Part shown: positions 1-47,331 of the stretch, in pieces
How the letters are laid out: every line of letters begins with the position of its first letter
How positions within the stretch are numbered: the first letter of the stretch is position 1
DNA from: Candidatus Latescibacterota bacterium
GTDB lineage: Bacteria; Latescibacterota; UBA2968; GCA-2709665
DNA length: 64,000 bases
Direction of reading: 5' to 3'
Assembly (NCBI GenBank): GCA_965116875.1
Contig: OZ220733.1
Location: forward strand, 4,832,001 to 4,896,000
Translations under genes and position numbers: made by a program
Notes under the pieces: generated by a model
The model's database searches: none
Seen by the model: the letters and a program-made list of their open reading frames with translations, nothing else
What the model was told of the DNA's origin: nothing

Positions 1-132
1 TATACAATAATTTCTTCGATTCCATATCTCCGGCACGGTTTTTGCATTTCGCAAACTGCCGATGCCATCGGACCACATGGACAGTTCGTGTTTTTCCGCG
101 AGAAGGTGACAAACCTACCAAGGGAGGTCGTC

Positions 133-588
133 ATGATGTTGGTACGCAGAATTGTAATGATCGCATTAACACTGTCGTGCATCTATGCGCCTGTGGCGGG
201 AGAACCGATTGTCAAGCAAATCACCCTGAAATCAGATGAGGGCGACGAAAGGAAGCGAGATACCGGACTGGCACTCTTGTGCTTTGCTGCCAGTGCAGGG
301 ATGGCTTACTATTCGCTGCAACAATTCGCGCTGGATAGCGAGGCCGACAATAATCAGACGAATTGTGTTATAGATGGTGGTGACATCGCTTCGTGCGAGA
401 GGCAGTACCCTAACGAAAAATATTATCTAAAAGGCGCGCTGGCGGCGGCTGGTTCCGGCATTATGTTCGGATTCGGCTTAAAGGCATGGAGCGGCAAGGC
501 CGAAAAGGCAAACCTGGGCAAGTCATTGATGATCGGAGTAAGGTCCGTTCGTCGCGGGGCTGTGGCTGCAGCGCAGCTGCGATTCTAG
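133..588 (+). CDS. Hypothetical exported/membrane protein
   Basis: GGGAGG SD before ATG133; signal-peptide-like N-terminus, two Gly/Ala-rich hydrophobic segments, C-terminal Phe. Confidence 0.6.
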   Translation: MMLVRRIVMIALTLSCIYAPVAGEPIVKQITLKSDEGDERKRDTGLALLCFAASAGMAYYSLQQFALDSEADNNQTNCVIDGGDIASCERQYPNEKYYLKGALAAAGSGIMFGFGLKAWSGKAEKANLGKSLMIGVRSVRRGAVAAAQLRF

Positions 589-710
589 GACGTGCCCAAC
601 ATCGCGCAGACGGGACATAGAGGTGGCCAGACAAGAGGCTGGCGCACGAGGCGGGTCGGTTGAATAACCGATGTCGAACGAACGCGCCGAGTCGTGGAGG
701 GACCCCCGTG

Positions 711-1214
711 ATGTTGACAAAGGAAGGATTAGTGAGACTAGCGATTATCGCTTTGCTGTTCGTCGGTGTCGCGACGCATGCGGACGCTACGAAGCATAAT
801 TTCAAGGGAAAGTTTCGGCGCGACACCAAGGGCGACTGGTACCCGGCAACCATTGTGATCAAGCCTAGATCTGTCATTATTTCCCATAACGGCTACACGA
901 TCGCCAAGATTGGTCCCGGCGCCAAGATTGCGGCGGGCATGCACAAGAAGATCGGTAAATCCTACTTGGGCGTGCTGGCCGGGGGTATCGCGACGGCTGG
1001 AGGATTGATTTCAGCAACGTCGATGAAAGACAAGAAAAAGACTGCCATAGCGGCGCTCTTGCCGGTTGTCGGCGCCGTCGTGACTGCTGTCGTTCGTCAT
1101 GAAAACCGCATCCATTTCACGCTCTCTGACAGTACGAAATTACTACTTCAGATTCGGATAGGCGGCGGTCTCGAGGACGAGTTCTATCGTCGGGCCCGTG
1201 ATATGCTACAATGA
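711..1214 (+). CDS. Hypothetical exported protein with glycine-zipper-like hydrophobic hairpin
   Basis: GGAGG SD upstream; signal peptide ending ADA; hydrophobic segments LGVLAGGIATAGGLI and IAALLPVVGAVV. Confidence 0.6.
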   Translation: MLTKEGLVRLAIIALLFVGVATHADATKHNFKGKFRRDTKGDWYPATIVIKPRSVIISHNGYTIAKIGPGAKIAAGMHKKIGKSYLGVLAGGIATAGGLISATSMKDKKKTAIAALLPVVGAVVTAVVRHENRIHFTLSDSTKLLLQIRIGGGLEDEFYRRARDMLQ

Positions 1215-1311
1215 CGGGAAATCCACGCGGGCTGTCTTATCGCGACGAGGACACGACAAAATGCGATAAGCCTTAAATTAGGGAATTCCTCAAGTGCGGC
1301 GTAACAATGTT

Positions 1312-3125
1312 GAGTCCTCTCCGAAAACGGGTGTTATGGGAACATCGTAAGAGTGGTCAGCGTTGGAACTTGAGAAGGAGCGTGTGTCGGAGATAAGGCG
1401 CGTAGGTGCGGCCTAACGCAGCAGGGGCAAGGTACAACGTTGCTCAGGGCGATGATATAGCGGTTTTTCGCAATAAATCTCCACTTATGCGGGTAGCATC
1501 GTGGGTGTTGCGACGTAATTCCGGATTCGAACCAGATTGACCCATAAGGTGCGACAGCGCGCCCACCATTGATGTGGCATCAATCCGCGATAGCGGGTTT
1601 TACCGTTTCGGGTGTAATAGCTCAACTGGAAGATGCTGGCTTCGACGTTATTGCGTCGGTTTCTGATGTGTTCAGGCAGGGCTTCAATCTGTTTACGTTT
1701 AAGGTAATTGTCGATGTGTTGTTCTTTAAAGTATCGGGGTTTGCCATCGATGATGAGTTTGTATTTTCCCGGTTTGTATTCCTGGGCAATGTGCACCACT
1801 CCGGTTTTTCGATCCGTGACGGTGACGCCGTCATCTGTGCGTTCATAGATGAAACGTCCTGGGGTTCCCTGCAAGCCATTGTAATAGAATTGCTTGTTCT
1901 GTTCTTCTGCATACTCGGCGTTGGATGGATCGTGATACGCCCCATCCATTGACACTTCCCGAACCTGTCCGACCACATGCTGTGTGCGCTCGATCGCCGC
2001 CTGCACAAACCCGTTGTCGGGCGCCGTCGCGGGTTTGACGTCAACGTCCGTGATCAAGTTGAGGCCCTCGTCACCACAGGTCTCGGCGAGGTTGACACTG
2101 TATCCTTTTACCTTATCCTCCCCTTTCTTACGAAAGGCCGCATCTTCGTCATCGGGGGACTGCAACGAGGATGCGGAGATCTCGTCAGGCGGCTTGGGAA
2201 GCACCTGTTTGGAGGATGATATCACCGTATATTGGTCCCCGAAAACACGCGCCATCACACCATAGTGATTGCTGTCTTGCTCGGTATAGGTCGCCTGAAG
2301 CCTGCTCAATAACACACCGTATTCCTGTAGCTTCTCCCCTTTTTCAGCACGGGTGAGTCGGTAGACAACCTGATGGGGTTTCACCTTGAGCATTGCGTCC
2401 AGAACCTGCCGATCTCTTGCCGATAATCGTCGCTTCAGGTCCTCGTCCAACGATCCCCAGAACCGGTGTAAGCAACTCACCACCAACTGCAACCGACAAC
2501 ACAACGCAATGTTCGAGCCGATCAACTTACTGTCCATTCGGATTTGCTGACCCAACACACCGAAGGCATTGGCCTGCGTCTTGGTTAAGCTGCTAAAGAC
2601 CTCGCCAACCAGGTCTTGACCGGTGTTCAGTTGATATGCATACAAGGCCTGCTTGAACAGGTAATACGTCGACTCCACAGGCGCCTCATCAGACAGATTC
2701 ATCAATCCCAATGCCCGCATCGCCAGTATGTTGAACCGACATTGCTCGAACAGTTGCGCATCGCTCCACCCAAAGCCCTCCTTCATGATCATCATGGCAA
2801 ACAACTGACGGATGGGCGCATTGGGACGGCCGATGTCGGCATCAAACAACACCGAAAACACATCCTCGTCTATCTTTGACGTGAGGTGCTCGTAAAACAG
2901 ATTATGCCACGACTTCGCATCATTCAACTGCGCCTGTTTCCGATCCGTGAAGTGTGACTCGAAATTCGAAAACAAATCCGGTTGACTGCACGACGCGCTT
3001 TTCTTAAACATCGCTACCGTCCCTCGCTCGTCTTCCGTTTTACATCTGAAACTTCGCATCCTCTTGTCATTTGGAATTTAGCACTTTTTTCTCAATAAGA
3101 AAACTCGACTTTTCGGAGTGGACTC
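1312..3125 (-). mobile_element. Complete insertion sequence (IS1182/IS5-like DDE element), ~1.8 kb
   Basis: TIRs GAGTCCTCTCCGAAAA (1312-1327) and TTTTCGGAGTGGACTC (3110-3125), 15/16 match; AATGTT duplicated at 1306-1311 and 3126-3131. Confidence 0.9.
1485..3011 (-). CDS. DDE transposase with DUF772-like N-terminus
   Basis: GRPNAP..L..MM..K..FGWSD motif; RMDS, MDGAY and RNNVEASI catalytic-like motifs; lies within the TIRs. Confidence 0.9.
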   Translation of the reverse strand: MFKKSASCSQPDLFSNFESHFTDRKQAQLNDAKSWHNLFYEHLTSKIDEDVFSVLFDADIGRPNAPIRQLFAMMIMKEGFGWSDAQLFEQCRFNILAMRALGLMNLSDEAPVESTYYLFKQALYAYQLNTGQDLVGEVFSSLTKTQANAFGVLGQQIRMDSKLIGSNIALCCRLQLVVSCLHRFWGSLDEDLKRRLSARDRQVLDAMLKVKPHQVVYRLTRAEKGEKLQEYGVLLSRLQATYTEQDSNHYGVMARVFGDQYTVISSSKQVLPKPPDEISASSLQSPDDEDAAFRKKGEDKVKGYSVNLAETCGDEGLNLITDVDVKPATAPDNGFVQAAIERTQHVVGQVREVSMDGAYHDPSNAEYAEEQNKQFYYNGLQGTPGRFIYERTDDGVTVTDRKTGVVHIAQEYKPGKYKLIIDGKPRYFKEQHIDNYLKRKQIEALPEHIRNRRNNVEASIFQLSYYTRNGKTRYRGLMPHQWWARCRTLWVNLVRIRNYVATPTMLPA

Positions 3126-3255
3126 AATGTTGAGGTCAATTCCCCGCCCGCTATTGAAGAGTGGTTGTTGCAAATCGGAAATGACCCGTCGATCCGGAGC
3201 AGATCGAATTTGTGGACAACTTTAACTCCAGACCACATCTCGGGAGAATAGACAA

Positions 3256-3642
3256 ATGAACCGTACAATGATTGGTTCGATTCTGGGGACAGTGGCAGTA
3301 GTCGTGGTCTCCATTGTAACAGCAGCGATGTACGTCGCAAGGCTGGAGGAACGTGTCAAGAACCTTGAGATCGATTCACAACAGCAAGAGAACAGAACGA
3401 ACATTGCAATCAGGACCTTTGCAAACACACCGCGACCTCGCGGATCACAGGTGGGATTTGCAAATAGTGGGAGTTGGGGGGTCTGGAGCGACCCTCAGTT
3501 CTGTCCAGATGGTTACTACGTTTGCGGATTGAAACAGAAAGTTGAACCCAGACAGGGTGACGGCGATGACTCCGCGATGAACGCGGTCGCTTTTTATTGT
3601 TGCCCTTTAGACCCGCAAGCTGAACCCAACGCAAGTCAGTGA
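3256..3642 (+). CDS. Membrane-anchored protein with one VMO-I (vitelline membrane outer layer, beta-prism I) repeat
   Basis: N-terminal TM helix, short coiled coil (RLEERVKNLE), then WGVWSDPQFCPDGYYVCGLKQKVEPRQGDGDDSAMNAVAFYCC matching the VOMI repeat pattern. Confidence 0.75.
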   Translation: MNRTMIGSILGTVAVVVVSIVTAAMYVARLEERVKNLEIDSQQQENRTNIAIRTFANTPRPRGSQVGFANSGSWGVWSDPQFCPDGYYVCGLKQKVEPRQGDGDDSAMNAVAFYCCPLDPQAEPNASQ

Positions 3643-3806
3643 TGAGCTTGCCATCGCGGAACCTGCACAACCAAAGACCCCTTGCTCCCTTTGTCTCCAA
3701 CATCTATTTTTGACCTCATTTTATACTCTTCTCTCCGCCCAAAATTCGACGTTAAACTCGGAGGGGGGTTGTCTCACTTTATGATTGGCACGGAGGGAAA
3801 GCTACA

Positions 3807-4385
3807 ATGAATAAGCGAATCTTCAAGCAATGGATTATTCTCGTGATCCTTTTCTATATTGTAGCACTCGTCATCGGAATCATGCTGAAGAACTGTGATA
3901 CTGGCGACGGTGAGCCGTTGTACAATACATTCAAGGACCTCTTGCCATTGATAATTGCCATTCCTGTCGTTTGGCTAGGCTACTGTTTCCACGGTCGACT
4001 TGCCTATCTGAGAGACGTTCGCGAACTGTGGTCAAAGATTGTTGTGGCAGTACAAGAAGCCATCCAATACACTCACCTCAAAACTCCTTCACAGTCGGAA
4101 TTTGGAACCGTGTTGAAGAACCTCAGTATAGCGACGGAAGAACTGCGAGCTATATTTATCAATATTGGCGAAGGGAGGGAAGGGATCGGTTTGTATCCAT
4201 ACGAAAGCATCAAGACCATCCACGCCCAAATATCATGTCTCAGCTTTGGACCGCAATTTACCGAGAAAAACGCGAAGGTGGCACGTAATCAGATAGTTGC
4301 GAGTTGGAAAGAGTTCAGGAAACACTACCTCAATGAGCTAGAGCGAAGTGTTCCCACCGATATTGATAGTCCTTTCTTCAAGTAG
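3807..4385 (+). CDS. Hypothetical protein with 2 N-terminal TM helices and a helical C-terminal domain
   Basis: GGAGGG SD; two hydrophobic segments; AT-rich codon usage. Confidence 0.7.
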   Translation: MNKRIFKQWIILVILFYIVALVIGIMLKNCDTGDGEPLYNTFKDLLPLIIAIPVVWLGYCFHGRLAYLRDVRELWSKIVVAVQEAIQYTHLKTPSQSEFGTVLKNLSIATEELRAIFINIGEGREGIGLYPYESIKTIHAQISCLSFGPQFTEKNAKVARNQIVASWKEFRKHYLNELERSVPTDIDSPFFK

Positions 4386-4818
4386 GCATATTTGGACAGT
4401 GCTACCAGCAGATAGTAAGTATCATTAACGGGTGAAGGCCTTATCAGGCAATTGTTATTCCAGCCTGCTTGTCTACGGTGGAATTGTTGTCAAATGTCTT
4501 GGATAGGGGAGAGCGCATCCTGGTGGTTTAAGCGGCGCCTCCTGGAATCGCAGCGACGGCGCGCTCTTCGCGCCAACGCCACGTTTACGGCGCCAAAATC
4601 CGCATCGTATGAGCCGTAATGTGCGGGGGCGTGGATTGATTGATTCGTGAAAATTGACAGTCCCAGGTGGCTCCATTGTGCCGATCATGGGCTGCCCGAT
4701 CAGTGCAATCCGTGACAACACTCTCACGTCAAAACACGCGCTCGTTTAGCCCGGGTTGAACGGGGGCTTCTGGGATAAGGGTGTTTACTAAGATAAATGA
4801 CCTGGAAAGGATTTACAG

Positions 4819-5890
4819 CATGCAATCGCCAATCCGTGGATTCACTAGCTCAGTAACCGTAGCATACTTCATCGCAATTGTCTGCGGGCTGTTCAACGTC
4901 GCATTTGCGCAACTTCCGCCCGAGGTCCTTGCGGATAAATATCTCATGCAGGCGGAACAACTGGCTGAGAAAGATGAATTTGACGGTGCGCTCAGCCTCA
5001 TGGACTCAATCAAGACAATGGAAAAGGATCAAAATATCACCCTGCGTGAGGACTTCCATTTCATGCACGCGAAGTTTGCCTACGCGGCGGGCAGGGCGCA
5101 GACTGCAATGGACGCGGTGAGCGAGTATCTGTCAGCGGGTCGCCGGGGCGAATACTATGACGAAGCGCTGGCGCTGTTGATCAGGGCCGAACAGGTACTT
5201 GCCGACTTTGACTTAACCGCTGCGAAAAAGTGCACGTCGGTTATTCAATTGAGAGATCCCTCTCGTTACACCACCCTTGATGGGAGGTCTGGGAAGCGTG
5301 TTTCTGAAGCTTCCTACTGTTGGCGGGCATTGATCAACCCTCCGGGTTGCCAAATATGGGTCGATAGCTACATGTTCGTTCATCGCAACATGCACTGGAC
5401 GGGCAAGTGTCCGGACGGTCGGGCAGAGGGGAAGGGCACGCTCACGGCAGTTTGGAGTTATGTAGCAGGTTCATACAGTTACGCGGATTCGCTGGGCCAC
5501 CGGGGGCGGTTCATAAAAGGCCGACCCCATGGCGATTGGGATATTCGCTGGTACGAAAACGGGCAGCTTCGTCGTCCAAACGCTGTCTCGACCGATGATT
5601 TCCTGGTTCGCAAGGGTCGATATGAATACGGCAAGAAGCACGGAAAATGGACTACTCGGTATCGGGTGTTTTTCGGTGATACTCGAACGCATAGAGTTCA
5701 AGGAAATACAGGCGAATATTCACAAGGATTGAAGGAAGGCGAATGGTTGTATGGGCGTCGTACTGCCTGTGAATCCGTGACATATCGTGCAGGCGCGAGG
5801 CTGGAGTCCAGCCGTGTTGACTCGGTGGTTTGTCAGCAGAAGCTAAGCAACGTCGAAGGCTATGGTTGGTCGAAATACGGACGGCGATAA
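4819..5890 (+). CDS. Exported protein with TPR-like N-terminal domain and MORN-like beta-repeat C-terminal domain
   Basis: Signal peptide ending AFA; helical domain (LPPEVLADKYL...EYYDEALALL); WTGKCPDGRAEGKG, GRFIKGRPHGDW, GRYEYGKKHGKW, GEYSQGLKEGEW repeats. Confidence 0.7.
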
Positions 5891-6023
5891 GGGGGTTTAC
5901 AAGAGATCACGCCGAACTATCGCCTTTTTAGCGATAATCCCGTCTACTACGTCATATGTCAACACAGCCAAGAATACAGGAGCGACTAAAGCCTGACTTG
6001 AGTCTGAATTCCTTCAGAAGGAA

Positions 6024-6176
6024 AATGAGAAGGGCAGACAGGAATGTCCGCCCCACCCTGCAGAAACCACCACACAATCCCGATTGACTGGGTTTTCAGG
6101 GCGACCGGCCGGTCGCCCCTGCAATACGCAAAAAGCCTGATATGCAACGACATATCAGGCTTTGTTTATTCAGTTT
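6024..6176. repeat. 153-bp direct repeat copy 1 (composite of REP-like palindromes)
   Basis: Matches 7393-7545 with 2 substitutions; hairpins at 6032-6056, 6098-6122 and 6132-6163. Confidence 0.95.
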
Positions 6177-6225
6177 TACAGCAAAGATCGGCGAACGATT
6201 CGCGACTGGTCTCCGGCGCCAGATC

Positions 6226-6269
6226 AAAACGGGACAACGCACCTGTAGCGTGCATTGTCCCGCATTTTT
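6226..6269. terminator. Putative intrinsic terminator downstream of the rpn-like gene
   Basis: CGGGACAAcGCAC-loop-GTGCaTTGTCCCG stem flanked by A and T tracts. Confidence 0.6.
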
Positions 6270-6302
6270 CGTTCGATGGGAAGGATGTTCAGGGAATGAT
6301 GC

Positions 6303-6581
6303 TCATCCCTCTTCTTGATCCATCAGTTGACCGAACGCGTCGAGGCTGGCCGCCTGTACCGCGCCGCGGTGCAGCTGTTCGAGACGCTTCACGTCGTCGA
6401 CGTTTTCGATGCGGGCGGCGAATGGATGCGACGCAGCGACGTCGAATCGGACGTCCAGTACGGCGAGGATACTTCTCCGGAGCCCTTGCTCGATCCCTTG
6501 TTCAATCCCCTGCTCAATTCCTTGCTCGACGCCCTGTCGGGTGAGGTATTGGGCAAACGACGATTCACGTACGAGATCCAT
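6303..6581 (-). CDS. Candidate intragenic in-frame small protein (RpnS-type antitoxin), 92 aa
   Basis: AAGGAGG (6593-6587) 5 nt before in-frame ATG6581, just upstream of the EQGI repeats. Confidence 0.6.
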   Translation of the reverse strand: MDLVRESSFAQYLTRQGVEQGIEQGIEQGIEQGLRRSILAVLDVRFDVAASHPFAARIENVDDVKRLEQLHRGAVQAASLDAFGQLMDQEEG

Positions 6582-7220
6582 CATGCCCTCCTTCGAAATG
6601 ATATCAGTAATGGTTTCCGGCACGTACACCAGACCGCTCAGCAACGCCATTCCTGCAAGATAGTCGGCTTTTTTCGGCAGAGCCATCGCACGCGCGTGTG
6701 CGGCGTGCAGACATCGGCGCAACCACGCCTGTGAATCCAACCCTTCAGGAGGCTTCATCAACGGCGCGAAGGCGATCAGCCCCTCGTGTCCCGCATCCAG
6801 AACCCCCTGGCCATCCTGCTCGCTCAATCGGATCACCCGGTATTGCACAAATACCTGGTGGCCCGGATGCGATTGCGAATACTGACCGGGATCCTGTCCT
6901 CCCGAATCCGGACGCAGGTAGATGACGCTGGAACAGACTGGCAACCCATGGCGCTCGATCGCCCGCCCGATATAGCCGACCATGCGACGCGGCATGGGCG
7001 GATCGGTACTGTCCGTCGTTTGAAATTCGGTGTGAACCAGTGCCTCGCGGTCGTCGATGCGCACGCGAATGAGACTGTCGGCCTGGCTTGTCGAGACCGT
7101 GGGCTGCTGGGTGTCGATGACTTCGAGGACTTCCACTTCCTCCCGACCGAGCGTGAAGCTGGCAAAGTCCTCGGGATAGCTTTGTATCAGGTGCTTGGAA
7201 ATCGCATCAAACTCTGCCAT
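6303..7220 (-). CDS. Rpn/YhgA-like PD-(D/E)XK nuclease (recombination-promoting nuclease family)
   Basis: D..SKHL N-terminus; ADSL...VHTEFQ catalytic motif; MPRRM..Y; VIYL; C-terminal (EQGI)n repeats and RF helical tail. Confidence 0.85.
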   Translation of the reverse strand: MAEFDAISKHLIQSYPEDFASFTLGREEVEVLEVIDTQQPTVSTSQADSLIRVRIDDREALVHTEFQTTDSTDPPMPRRMVGYIGRAIERHGLPVCSSVIYLRPDSGGQDPGQYSQSHPGHQVFVQYRVIRLSEQDGQGVLDAGHEGLIAFAPLMKPPEGLDSQAWLRRCLHAAHARAMALPKKADYLAGMALLSGLVYVPETITDIISKEGMMDLVRESSFAQYLTRQGVEQGIEQGIEQGIEQGLRRSILAVLDVRFDVAASHPFAARIENVDDVKRLEQLHRGAVQAASLDAFGQLMDQEEG

Positions 7221-7392
7221 GCAGGACGCCCTGGGGGAGGAGGAACGGGTCTGTATAAACAAGATACCGGTTCAAGGCGGAAAGTCAATTGCGTCATGGT
7301 AAGAGTGAACGAATCATTTACAGCCCGCGCTCGTCCTGGCCAACGCAAGGGCGACCCATACCTGTCATTCTTGCGCATTCCGGCAGGATGAC

Positions 7393-7545
7393 AATGAGAA
7401 GGGCAGACAGGAATGTCCGCCCCACCCTGCAGAAACCACCACACAACCCCGATTGACTGGGTTTTCAGGGCGACCGGCCGGTCGCCCCTACAATACGCAA
7501 AAAGCCTGATATGCAACGACATATCAGGCTTTGTTTATTCAGTTT
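7393..7545. repeat. 153-bp direct repeat copy 2; contains GTGG- and GTAG-type REP-like palindromes
   Basis: Minus strand reads GTAGGGGCGACCGGCCGGTCGCCCT (7491-7467) and GTGGGGCGGACATTCCTGTCTGCCC (7425-7401); AAAGCCTGATATG/CATATCAGGCTTT stem at 7501-7532. Confidence 0.95.
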
Positions 7546-7590
7546 AACAAGTCCGGGCGATGCAGGATAGCCGACGTATTGTTGCCGGCC

Positions 7591-8376
7591 TCAACCCCGC
7601 GCCAGGTCCCGGTAGGCCCTGAAGAGGTCCGCGTAATACGCCGCGAACATCCACCGGTCGCCGACGCCCCGATCGGGGCTACGTTCGGCTTCGGCCGACA
7701 TGTACCCCGCGTATCCTTTCTGGTGAAGCAGCCGGAACAACTCCCTGTACGGGTACCCCTGGCCGGCCAGGTCGTGCATATGCACGTGATCCAGCCAGGG
7801 CCAGACCGCTTCGAGCGCCTGCGCAACCGAACCGTCAACCACGTCTTCGGCCACCGAATTCCAGATCAATCCGAAATTTGAATGGTCCACCCGTTCGGCT
7901 ACCGACCGGCACGACCGCCAGTCGAATTCGCCGTGCAGTTCCAGGCACGGCCTGACAGCCCTAGCGACGCCGTACGCGCAGAGCTCCTGAAGCGCATCGG
8001 CCACCTGAGCGATCGTCTTCTCTCTCGGCACGTCTTTGGGGAAATTGTTCCCGAAGACCCTCACCCTGGGCGCTCCCAGATCCGCCGCGAGATCCATCCG
8101 CGCCTTTGTCTGTTCGATCTGGTCCCGAAGATCGGACGCGTCCTCATCGTGATACCGGTTTCCCGTTGCGACGCTGATGATTTCGATGCCGGCCGCCCGG
8201 CAGTCTGCCACGACCTGCCTGCGTTCGGCGTCATCCAGCGAAGCCTCCACGCCGTGCCCGTGACCCAGATCCGTCCGGAACTCGACGCCCTCGACGCCGT
8301 GGTCACCCAGCGTCTGCAGCAGGTCCCGGCGCGAAAGGTCTTTCAGAACGCCATATGTCATCCAGGAAAGTTTCAT
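7591..8376 (-). CDS. Sugar phosphate isomerase/epimerase (xylose isomerase-like TIM barrel)
   Basis: GVEFR, LELHG, HVHMHD, SAEAE motifs. Confidence 0.85.
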   Translation of the reverse strand: MKLSWMTYGVLKDLSRRDLLQTLGDHGVEGVEFRTDLGHGHGVEASLDDAERRQVVADCRAAGIEIISVATGNRYHDEDASDLRDQIEQTKARMDLAADLGAPRVRVFGNNFPKDVPREKTIAQVADALQELCAYGVARAVRPCLELHGEFDWRSCRSVAERVDHSNFGLIWNSVAEDVVDGSVAQALEAVWPWLDHVHMHDLAGQGYPYRELFRLLHQKGYAGYMSAEAERSPDRGVGDRWMFAAYYADLFRAYRDLARG

Positions 8377-21502: not shown

Positions 21503-21515
21503 TTGGGCCTCCTTG

Positions 21516-21618
21516 GAAGCTGTCCTGAGATTCCCGGCGGTCTTCGCACCTGCCTGCGCAGCGTATTGCGCTGCAGTCAGGCCCGTCGGGAACTCACCGG
21601 TCATGTGAAACCAGCTTC
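21516..21618. mobile_element. MITE-like repeat family A, copy 1
   Basis: GAAGCTGT...CAGCTTC termini; sub-terminal sequence shared with 44453-44610 and 47112-47331. Confidence 0.75.
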
Positions 21619-27809: not shown

Positions 27810-27818
27810 TCCTCCGCT

Positions 27819-28001
27819 GCAAGGGTAGAGGCGCGGGTTTGCATGAGTAGCCGGCAGTGGACGGCGGACCCACAACTGCCGGACCAAAGGGCAAACCTGC
27901 CGAAGCCCGAGACTCCCGCCGCCGGGATGAACGGGCTGGGCTGCTGGATAAGATCCAGCGGACTGTCACGGGAAACAGCGTCCCGTGGAGCGCTCTCTTG
28001 C
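27819..28001 (+). promoter_or_regulatory. Lysine riboswitch (L-box) aptamer
   Basis: AGAGGCGC, ATGAGTA, AAAGG, GCCGAA, TGGG, ACTGTC, GGAGCGCT in canonical order; P1 GCAAGGGTAG/CTCTCTTGC; upstream of asd. Confidence 0.9.
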
Positions 28002-28022
28002 GACGTGGCCCGGATCGGTCGA

Positions 28023-44437: not shown

Positions 44438-44452
44438 GTAAGTTCCTCCTTG

Positions 44453-44610
44453 GAAGCTGTCTTAAAATTCCCAGCGGTCTTCGCACGGCTGCAAAAGCGC
44501 CGGTCGGCGTTGGTCAAACCCGTATAGACAAATATGGGCGAGTTTTCCCGCCTTGACCGCCACTTTTTCGCTCGCGCTCGGGAACTCACCGGTAATTTTA
44601 AAACAGCTTC
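44453..44610. mobile_element. MITE-like repeat family A, copy 2 (best-preserved TIRs)
   Basis: GAAGCTGTCTTAAAATT and AATTTTAAAACAGCTTC (16/17). Confidence 0.8.
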
Positions 44611-47007: not shown

Positions 47008-47111
47008 AGTGACCGCTACTCCTCCTTCTAGCCGGCTGCTGAAGTCCGGCGCCATATGGTTCCGACCGGAAAGAACAAGAAAGGCCGTCTCCGGCAGAGA
47101 GACGACCCTTG

Positions 47112-47331
47112 GAAGCTGTCCTGAAATTCCCAGCGGTTTTCGCACGGCTGCAAAAGCGCCCGCCTGCGCAGCGTACTGCGCTGCAGGCAGGCCGGTCAGC
47201 GTTGGTCATCAAATCCACCCGAATACGAGATCGAGGCTGCGCTTGCTCGCCTCTCGTCGGCGGACTTTCCCGCCTTGACCGGCCCTTTTTTGCTCGCGAT
47301 CGGGACGTACCGGAAATCCTGAAACAGTTTC
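47112..47331. mobile_element. MITE-like repeat family A, copy 3
   Basis: GAAGCTGTCCTGAAATT...GAAACAGTTTC; carries the GCCTGCGCAGCGTAyTGCGCTGCAG palindrome also present in copy 1. Confidence 0.75.

Follow-up and report, generated by a model that had tools for sequence, protein, structure and literature searches.

A 64,000-nucleotide stretch of the genome of a Candidatus Latescibacterota bacterium (GenBank assembly GCA_965116875.1, contig OZ220733.1, positions 4,832,001 to 4,896,000; below, the window, numbered from its first letter) carries a single gene of the Rpn kind between two nearly identical direct repeats of 153 nucleotides (nt). Each repeat holds two hairpins resembling repetitive extragenic palindromes (REPs) and a third that looks like an intrinsic terminator. 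The parts, namely the Rpn gene, the GTAG-type REP and the terminator, are each of a known kind, and what is unusual is that so long a direct repeat encloses one rpn gene. The reading that we favour, and to which we give about an even chance, is that an rpn cassette entered by recombination at a module of terminator and REPs lying between two convergent genes, with duplication of that module.

The two copies of the repeat, and the tails that extend them to the left, are placed as follows.

6024..6176, unstranded: repeat copy A (R_A), from alignment and folds, with its hairpins in the plus-strand order H1, H2, H3
7393..7545, unstranded: repeat copy B (R_B), from alignment
5974..6023, unstranded: tail beside copy A, with weak in-register homology to 7343-7392, holding the decayed half-REP CAGGAGCGAC
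7343..7392, unstranded: tail beside copy B, the in-register homologue of 5974-6023, holding the half-REP CAAGGGCGACC

The copies align with two mismatches in 153 positions (98.7% identity), at 6078 (T/C) and 6121 (G/A), and their starts are 1369 nt apart. When up to three mismatches are allowed, the 20-nt palindrome of the repeat (H2) and its 32-nt hairpin (H3) each occur exactly twice in the window, and since none of 100 shuffles of the window gave two matches to either, the repeat is not a product of chance. Alignment and shuffles thus confirm the length, mismatches and spacing of the pair as they had been described in an earlier annotation made from the letters alone (the first-pass annotation). 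No third copy of the unit was found in the 64 kb, whether by a repeat scan of the whole window or by the palindrome and hairpin searches, and blastn of positions 5950-7600 against 72,556 plasmids gave no match. We also used two open reading frames (ORFs) that run across the copies as proxies for further copies in a protein database. The 55-residue frame across copy A had no candidate among proteins of 30-97 residues, and the 111-residue frame across copy B and the region upstream of rpn found one protein at E<=1e-3, of 1274 residues, with residues 22-52 alone matched; both are weak negatives, because such frames are rarely called as genes.

Likeness between the two loci continues past the repeat at a lower level. 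To its left 28 of 47 positions match in register (5977-6023 against 7346-7392), compared to 11.6 +/- 2.9 for random local segments (p ~1.5e-4), and to its right 11 of 24 (p ~0.02). Identity therefore falls on the left from 99% to about 58%, and stays above background for about 50 nt. A target-site duplication has sharp ends and unrelated flanks, and a clean one does not fit this weaker homology. A second promoter-like site on the minus strand (7394-7367; TTGTCA, 16 nt, AAGAAT) spans the exact junction of copy B with the unique segment, and the equivalent position at copy A is without one.

Folding resolves three hairpins in the repeat.

6031-6054 (copy A) and 7400-7423 (copy B), minus strand: H1, REP-like but imperfect, its 5′ edge on the minus strand reading GTGG, from folds
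6099-6118 (copy A) and 7468-7487 (copy B), minus strand: H2, a perfect 20-nt palindrome with an 8-bp stem and a GGCC loop, from the palindrome search
6132-6163 (copy A) and 7501-7532 (copy B), unstranded: H3, whose stem has 13 bp and whose loop has 6 nt, preceded by a run of A and followed by a run of T, from folds and a terminator scan

As DNA, the plus strand of the 153-mer folds at -35.7 kcal/mol (z -6.07), with none of 200 shuffles equally stable, and the minus strand folded as RNA gives a z of -5.32. In both cases there are three separate hairpins, the number that the first-pass annotation had given. The repeat begins 8 nt before H1 and ends 13 nt after H3. On the minus strand H2 is headed by GTAG in copy B only, where it reads GTAG+GGGCGACC..GGTCGCCC; in copy A this tag is hit by one of the two mismatches and has become GCAG. 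A short G+C-rich extragenic palindrome with the GT[A/G]G head of REPs is thus present as H2 of copy B and, in its GTGG form, as H1. The claim that each repeat contains a GTAG-type REP holds for copy B and fails for copy A at the tag. Since H1 and H2 point the same way on the minus strand, they make up a head-tail, or tandem, pair. Perfect hairpins tagged with GT[AG]G or GCAG number three in the whole window, compared to one to seven in ten shuffles, which is the level expected by chance. H3 looks like a bidirectional intrinsic terminator and fits the terminator of a convergent gene pair.

Two other identities for the repeat were considered and dropped. The attC site of an integron is one long imperfect palindrome, and the repeat has three separate hairpins. 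A riboswitch or small RNA was set aside because a search of Rfam over 5900-7650 at E<=1 returned nothing and there are no further copies for comparison.

Judged by its sequence, H2 appears to belong to a widespread kind of GTAG-tagged REP, because its stems and tag recur across many phyla. One scan of a genome collection with the stems of H2 and a free loop returned at least 121 loci, all from other organisms, among them Chloroflexota, Desulfobacterota, Verrucomicrobiota, Planctomycetota, Armatimonadota and Gemmatimonadota. Among the matches listed, 107 of 124 are followed by AC, which is the GTAG head on the other strand, and 4 by GC, corresponding to the GCAG of copy A; a head-to-head GTAGGGG partner lies within 120 nt in 34 of the 124. 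The ORFs that adjoin these hairpins are ordinary genes, save that one of 66 encodes a Y1_Tnp protein (locus L060), and this ORF overlaps two such REP hairpins. Stems of the H1 type accompany H2 at 2 of the 121 loci among the matches listed, and at none of them did the part of the 153-mer matched by blastn go beyond H2 with a few bases beside it, nor was a relative of Rpn present at any (0/121). The assignment of H2 to the GTAG REPs, which the first-pass annotation had made, is supported by these related hairpins. The GTAG class itself, its occurrence in distant phyla, its GTGG variants and its rare head-tail pairs were already described in the part of the literature available to us (PMC3733652).

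Some further features of these loci may be mentioned. The head GTAGGGGCG is common to REP hairpins with differing stems in many phyla (among loci L001-L121, for instance L002, L030, L032 and L072). Hairpins with this head often stand in head-to-head pairs, and two doublets resembling REPINs, that is, inverted REP pairs, lie at 7927-8700 of L004, a locus from Gemmatimonadota.

The gene between the repeats and the features that go with it are listed here.

6303..7220, minus strand: rpn (RpnL-like), 305 residues, with its ATG at 7220 and an in-frame TTG upstream at 7262, from the ORF list and homologues
7261..7288, minus strand: promoter-like site of rpn, TTGACT, 16 nt, TATCTT, from a promoter scan
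6229..6263, minus strand: the terminator-like hairpin of rpn itself, 14 pairs with the tail TTTGATCTGG, from a terminator scan
6303..6581, minus strand: putative intragenic antitoxin (RpnS-like), 92 residues, starting at Met214 (6581-6579), from the codon table and conservation
6484..6537, minus strand: four tandem 12-nt units coding for QG(V/I)E four-residue repeats, from a repeat scan and alignment

It is the sole credible gene between copies A and B, and the 14-pair stem at 6263-6229 bears out the earlier description of a single gene with a terminator of its own. About 80 nt before the ATG (7221-7297) are recognisably kept in two homologues, P0014 and P0020, as extensions of their N-termini, and since this segment is thus retained at other loci, rpn appears to travel with its own promoter region. 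With a promoter-like site, a long toxin and a predicted internal antitoxin, and its own terminator, the cassette would be self-contained.

That this gene belongs to the Rpn family had been asserted at first pass; the thresholds of curated models do not give it this label. No Pfam family was found for the protein even at E<=10, and the match to TIGR01784 (E 6.6e-6, 26.1 bits) is below the curated cut-off of 52.1; the same model matches 19 of 38 clade members at E<=1e-3, the best at 1.7e-8. Homologues speak for the label. We found 1705 relatives at E<=1e-3, the best of them 84% identical by BLAST and 86% in our alignment, and identical Rpn proteins among them occur on up to 21 contigs. The few relatives that carry an organism name are from Gemmatimonadota, and one protein with 61% identity (P0069) is named 'Rpn family recombination-promoting nuclease/putative transposase' by NCBI. 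Additionally, tblastn matched residues 1-230 to 31 cyanobacterial plasmid records with 26-30% identity (E down to 3e-14), where the genes are annotated as Rpn family or DUF4351. In an alignment of 38 sequences, on which all our conservation counts for rpn rest, D5, D48, E65 and Q67 are invariant in 38/38 and the ExQ spacing is kept. These residues correspond, by pattern and not by direct alignment, to D11, D63, E82 and Q84 of RpnA, a PD-(D/E)XK pattern whose mutation is described as inactivating RpnA (PMC5350276, in the part available).

The AlphaFold2 (AF2) model of the protein has a mean predicted local distance difference test score (pLDDT) of 79.1; a Foldseek search with it against the PDB gave no match at E<=1e-3, and the weak matches at E 0.02-0.3 include the restriction-endonuclease-like 1y88, EndoMS, SfsA and XisH. 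A sequence-profile search of the PDB with the protein gave no hits, and PADLOC, run on rpn and the six ORFs to its left, no match to a defence family save two marginal ones. In spite of the missed curated thresholds, the Rpn-annotated homologues, the invariant D..ExQ residues and the hallmarks of RpnL/RpnS make the gene look like a divergent Rpn-family member of the 'antitoxin within toxin' type.

These hallmarks are found in the C-terminal third of the gene. The sequence AAGGAGG lies at 6593-6587, 5 nt before Met214, in front of ATG ATG at 6584-6579, and this internal Shine-Dalgarno sequence with its start codon is a predicted translation start for a small C-terminal protein. Around it E211 does not vary in the alignment, and conservation is at least 90% at both G212 and M214. 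From Met214 it is about 15 residues to the first QG(V/I)E repeat, which is inside the range of 8-20 residues reported between the internal methionine and the four-residue repeats of RpnS (PMC10400941, in the part available). [quoted passage not shown] The C-terminal 92 residues (214-305) are predicted to form a homodimer along the first helix with a score of 0.74, compared to 0.05 for the best of three controls; in our benchmark, 20 of 30 solved pairs but only 1 of 23 single chains attain the 0.74 mark. The prediction runs agree in 100% of contacts, with a partner pLDDT of at least 84. Because the similar dimer of RpnAS had already been solved, the predicted homodimer speaks for likeness and is not independent proof. 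The internal start, the repeats, the predicted dimer and the Rpn-annotated homologues together support the earlier view that this is an Rpn gene of the toxin-antitoxin type.

The repeat-bounded segment is in turn flanked by two genes that converge towards it.

4781..5890, plus strand: left neighbour, an ORF of 369 residues of no known family (no Pfam match), convergent with rpn and the last of the lower-GC region, from the ORF list (G+C content at third codon positions, GC3, 0.57)
7591..8376, minus strand: right neighbour, a xylose-isomerase-like TIM-barrel gene (PF01261, 1.1e-24), the first high-GC core gene (GC3 0.77)

Copy A lies between the convergent left neighbour and rpn, and copy B behind the stop codon of the TIM-barrel gene, which is 46 nt from it, and in front of rpn. 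This is also where the composition changes, as had been noted at first pass: the G+C content is 0.48-0.54 over positions 1-6000 compared to about 0.60-0.66 from 8001 on, and GC3 is 0.52-0.63 in the ORFs to the left, 0.68 in rpn and 0.75-0.77 in the next two genes. Positions 1-6000 hold an IS1182-like transposase and ORFs of no known family. From 7591 on follow core genes, among them those for the TIM-barrel enzyme, PIG-L, TamB, an Omp85 protein, ClpB, MreBC and haem synthesis. The ClpB is 93% identical to its counterpart in a Gemmatimonadota MAG, the nearest relative in the protein collection.

From this arrangement we infer that in the ancestral state one module, a bidirectional terminator with two tandem REP-type hairpins, separated the convergent genes 4781-5890 (+) and 7591-8376 (-). 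An rpn cassette would then have recombined into the locus with the module as the shared sequence, so that a module came to stand on either side of it. Candidate routes would be one crossover with an intermediate that was circular or tandemly repeated, or unequal exchange, and no transposase would be required. Once in place, the two 153-nt copies would themselves be open to homologous recombination, and by simple geometry, as the first-pass annotation had pointed out, an exchange between them removes 1369 nt and leaves one copy; the same process might also amplify the unit into a tandem rpn array. A local origin for the pair is supported by the lack of a third copy in the 64 kb, by the divergence, to 61-90% identity, of a repeat that is dispersed in the window (described below), and by the fit of H3 to a terminator between convergent genes. 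The GC profile and the IS1182-like transposase speak for a position at the edge of a variable region. The reconstruction fits the published behaviour of rpn genes, which in the available part of the survey are gained and lost singly, have variable ends but neither inverted repeats nor duplicated targets, and give rise to arrays when they are directly duplicated in tandem (PMC10400941). That a toxin-antitoxin pair might stabilise the insert is possible in principle, purely by inference.

Several points weigh against this reconstruction. The ancestral state is derived from this one locus. The step in identity on the left, from 99% to a level of about 58% that is still above background, is not explained by a simple recent duplication, and suggests either that the module copies are older and their core was gene-converted, or that the incoming module had diverged from the resident one. 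The module could also be common in the genome beyond the 64 kb. Lastly, the published surveys, in the parts available, report no repeats flanking rpn genes (PMC10400941), and of six annotated cyanobacterial plasmid loci that we examined none of the four with a single rpn has bracketing repeats. This makes the present case unusual, and some special mechanism may be behind it.

The alternatives differ in what they make of the repeat. Its 153-200 nt might be a dispersed multi-copy intergenic element, like a bacterial interspersed mosaic element (BIME) or a MITE (miniature inverted-repeat transposable element), with copies that came to lie beside rpn by coincidence or by a preference for terminators, and unlinked to the arrival of the gene. 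The lower-identity homology past the core would suit two members of such a family, REP-type units elsewhere are reported to cluster and to be reiterated with flanking DNA (PMC3733652, in the part available), and the genome does hold another dispersed repeat family. However, the two copies are 1.4 kb apart with none in the other 62 kb, they are 98.7% identical compared to 61-90% for the true dispersed repeat of the window, and the two protein-database proxies found no further copies, though this last point is weak; we consider the idea unlikely. A very long target-site duplication is a still less probable account. Here staggered breaks outside the outer hairpins would be filled after joining, and the cutter might be a structure-sensitive nuclease, possibly Rpn itself. 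The ends of the repeat do lie near the outer hairpins, and RpnA is described as a DNA endonuclease that leaves 3′ hydroxyls, with polymerase template switching at cleavage sites discussed in the same paper (PMC5350276, in part). But the flanks should then be unrelated, yet the left one matches at 28 of 47 positions; the available text of the survey records no target duplication at rpn genes (PMC10400941), and RpnA is reported to have little sequence specificity (PMC5350276, in part). Hardest of all to credit is an assembly artefact in which a contig was mis-joined and had one segment put in twice around it. Nothing that we observed favours it. Faced with a repeat, assemblers usually break and do not duplicate it, the copies here differ at two positions, and the flanks are unique and coherent, with gene, promoter and terminators in place.

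The first-pass annotation had preferred a non-autonomous, mobile or excisable cassette delimited by REPs. In this model a RAYT/HUH (Y1) transposase encoded elsewhere would excise the unit and insert it as single-stranded DNA. Some observations do favour this. H2 carries the GTAG tag in copy B, as do most of its listed relatives (107/124), a head-to-head partner within 120 nt accompanies 34/124 of these, and one of 66 adjoining ORFs, that of L060, is a Y1_Tnp. Additionally all four REP-type hairpins of the unit are on one strand, the G-rich one by GC skew, and the end hairpins of IS200/IS605 elements also lie on one strand. Against it, none of the 42 window ORFs scanned against Pfam is a Y1 transposase or RAYT, tagged hairpins in the window are at chance level, and copy A is without the GTAG tag. 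The REPs are in tandem and not in the inverted arrangement of a REPIN, and the identity of the copies spans the linkers and the terminator as well, with weaker homology beyond. No Rpn relative occurs at the 121 REP loci among the matches listed, and in the portions of the literature available we came upon no RAYT that moves a cargo gene. RAYT-driven mobility of the unit is thus not supported, and we regard it as very unlikely. The broader claim of a mobile unit is not supported either, given that there is no further copy in the 64 kb, that no listed H2-type locus has an Rpn relative and that the identity extends over linkers and terminator. A variant in which repeat, rpn and repeat form a portable unit, the rpn cassettes of this Gemmatimonadota clade carrying the REP/terminator module as a handle for recombination (through cleavage directed by hairpins, through template switching or through a Y1 enzyme in trans), we hold to be doubtful, with somewhat better prospects than a long target-site duplication.

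Set beside known systems, the locus shares features with several. Like the GTAG REPs, BIMEs and REPIN-RAYT systems (PMC3733652, PMC3116915 and PMC2817692, each in the part available), it has short extragenic palindromes, rich in G+C and headed by GT[A/G]G, beside terminators, and a RAYT-like gene does lie next to hairpins of the H2 type in L060. Unlike REPs, which are defined by high copy number, only two copies are present in the 64 kb, both inside the repeat, and unlike a REPIN, which is an inverted pair in many copies, H1 and H2 are head-tail, with no further unit in the window and no RAYT in the 42 scanned ORFs. The left and right ends of IS200/IS605 elements differ and no duplication is made, whereas both ends of the present unit are the same 153 nt and there is no Y1 transposase inside or nearby. 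The likeness to these 'peel and paste' elements (PMC6006769, in part) lies in the hairpins that the two ends carry on one strand, and in the lack of inverted terminal repeats.

The closest comparison for the gene is with RpnL/RpnS of E. coli (RpnA-E, RpnP2; PMC10400941 and PMC5350276, in the parts available), with which it shares the D..ExQ residues, the internal start, the variable four-residue repeats and the predicted first-helix dimer; the present family is likewise multi-copy and patchily distributed. It differs in being very distant in sequence, beyond the reach of Pfam and under the TIGR01784 cut-off, and its toxicity, nuclease activity and role in phage defence are putative. The 153-nt pair also sets it apart from the rpn genes described there, for which no flanking repeats are reported. 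Two of the six annotated plasmid loci (L124 and L125, from Synechocystis) are tandem rpn pairs, and such arrays, known also from the published survey (PMC10400941, in part), are direct repeats of an rpn-containing segment of the sort that unequal exchange between R_A and R_B would yield. In L124 and L125, however, it is the gene that occurs twice (300 nt at 93%), while here the flank is duplicated and the gene single. In two other cyanobacterial plasmid loci (L122, 3461-5263, and L123, 3851-4574) the Rpn/DUF4351 gene directly adjoins a CRISPR array and cas genes.

The rest of the window holds a few further features. The transposase of the lower-GC region (1485-3059, minus strand) is IS1182/IS5-like, with a DUF772 match and 93 bits to NF033551, which is below the cut-off. 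A small ORF in the same region (3256-3642, plus strand) matches, at 1.4e-14, the VOMI domain (named for vitelline membrane outer layer protein I), a family that is unusual in a bacterium. A lysine riboswitch (RF00168, 84 bits; 27818-28003, plus strand) lies directly upstream of an aspartate-semialdehyde dehydrogenase gene, and is the only element in the window to pass the Rfam gathering threshold. The dispersed repeat has three scattered copies (21511-21618, 44448-44610 and 47107-47305) of 61-90% identity with internal indels, and each sits where a called minus-strand ORF has its 5′ end. One end of the repeat is the inverted copy of the other (GGAAGCTGT...ACAGCTTCC), which gives it the look of a MITE. 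Mobile small repeats in this genome have this appearance, and the 153-mer does not share it.

The rpn genes are widespread antiphage toxin-antitoxin genes that move between genomes, and in the available part of the survey neither the mechanism of this movement nor defined ends are known (PMC10400941). A single rpn gene inside a long, near-perfect direct repeat is for this reason a useful locus and, though it is one instance as it stands, a good test case for rpn movement. Relatives of the locus can reveal whether rpn entered by recombination at a REP/terminator module, and the repeat pair leads one to expect that a defence gene is lost and amplified to a measurable extent. Should the repeat, rpn and repeat prove to be a portable unit, this would be the first defined insertion footprint for rpn genes, which have hitherto been without defined ends.

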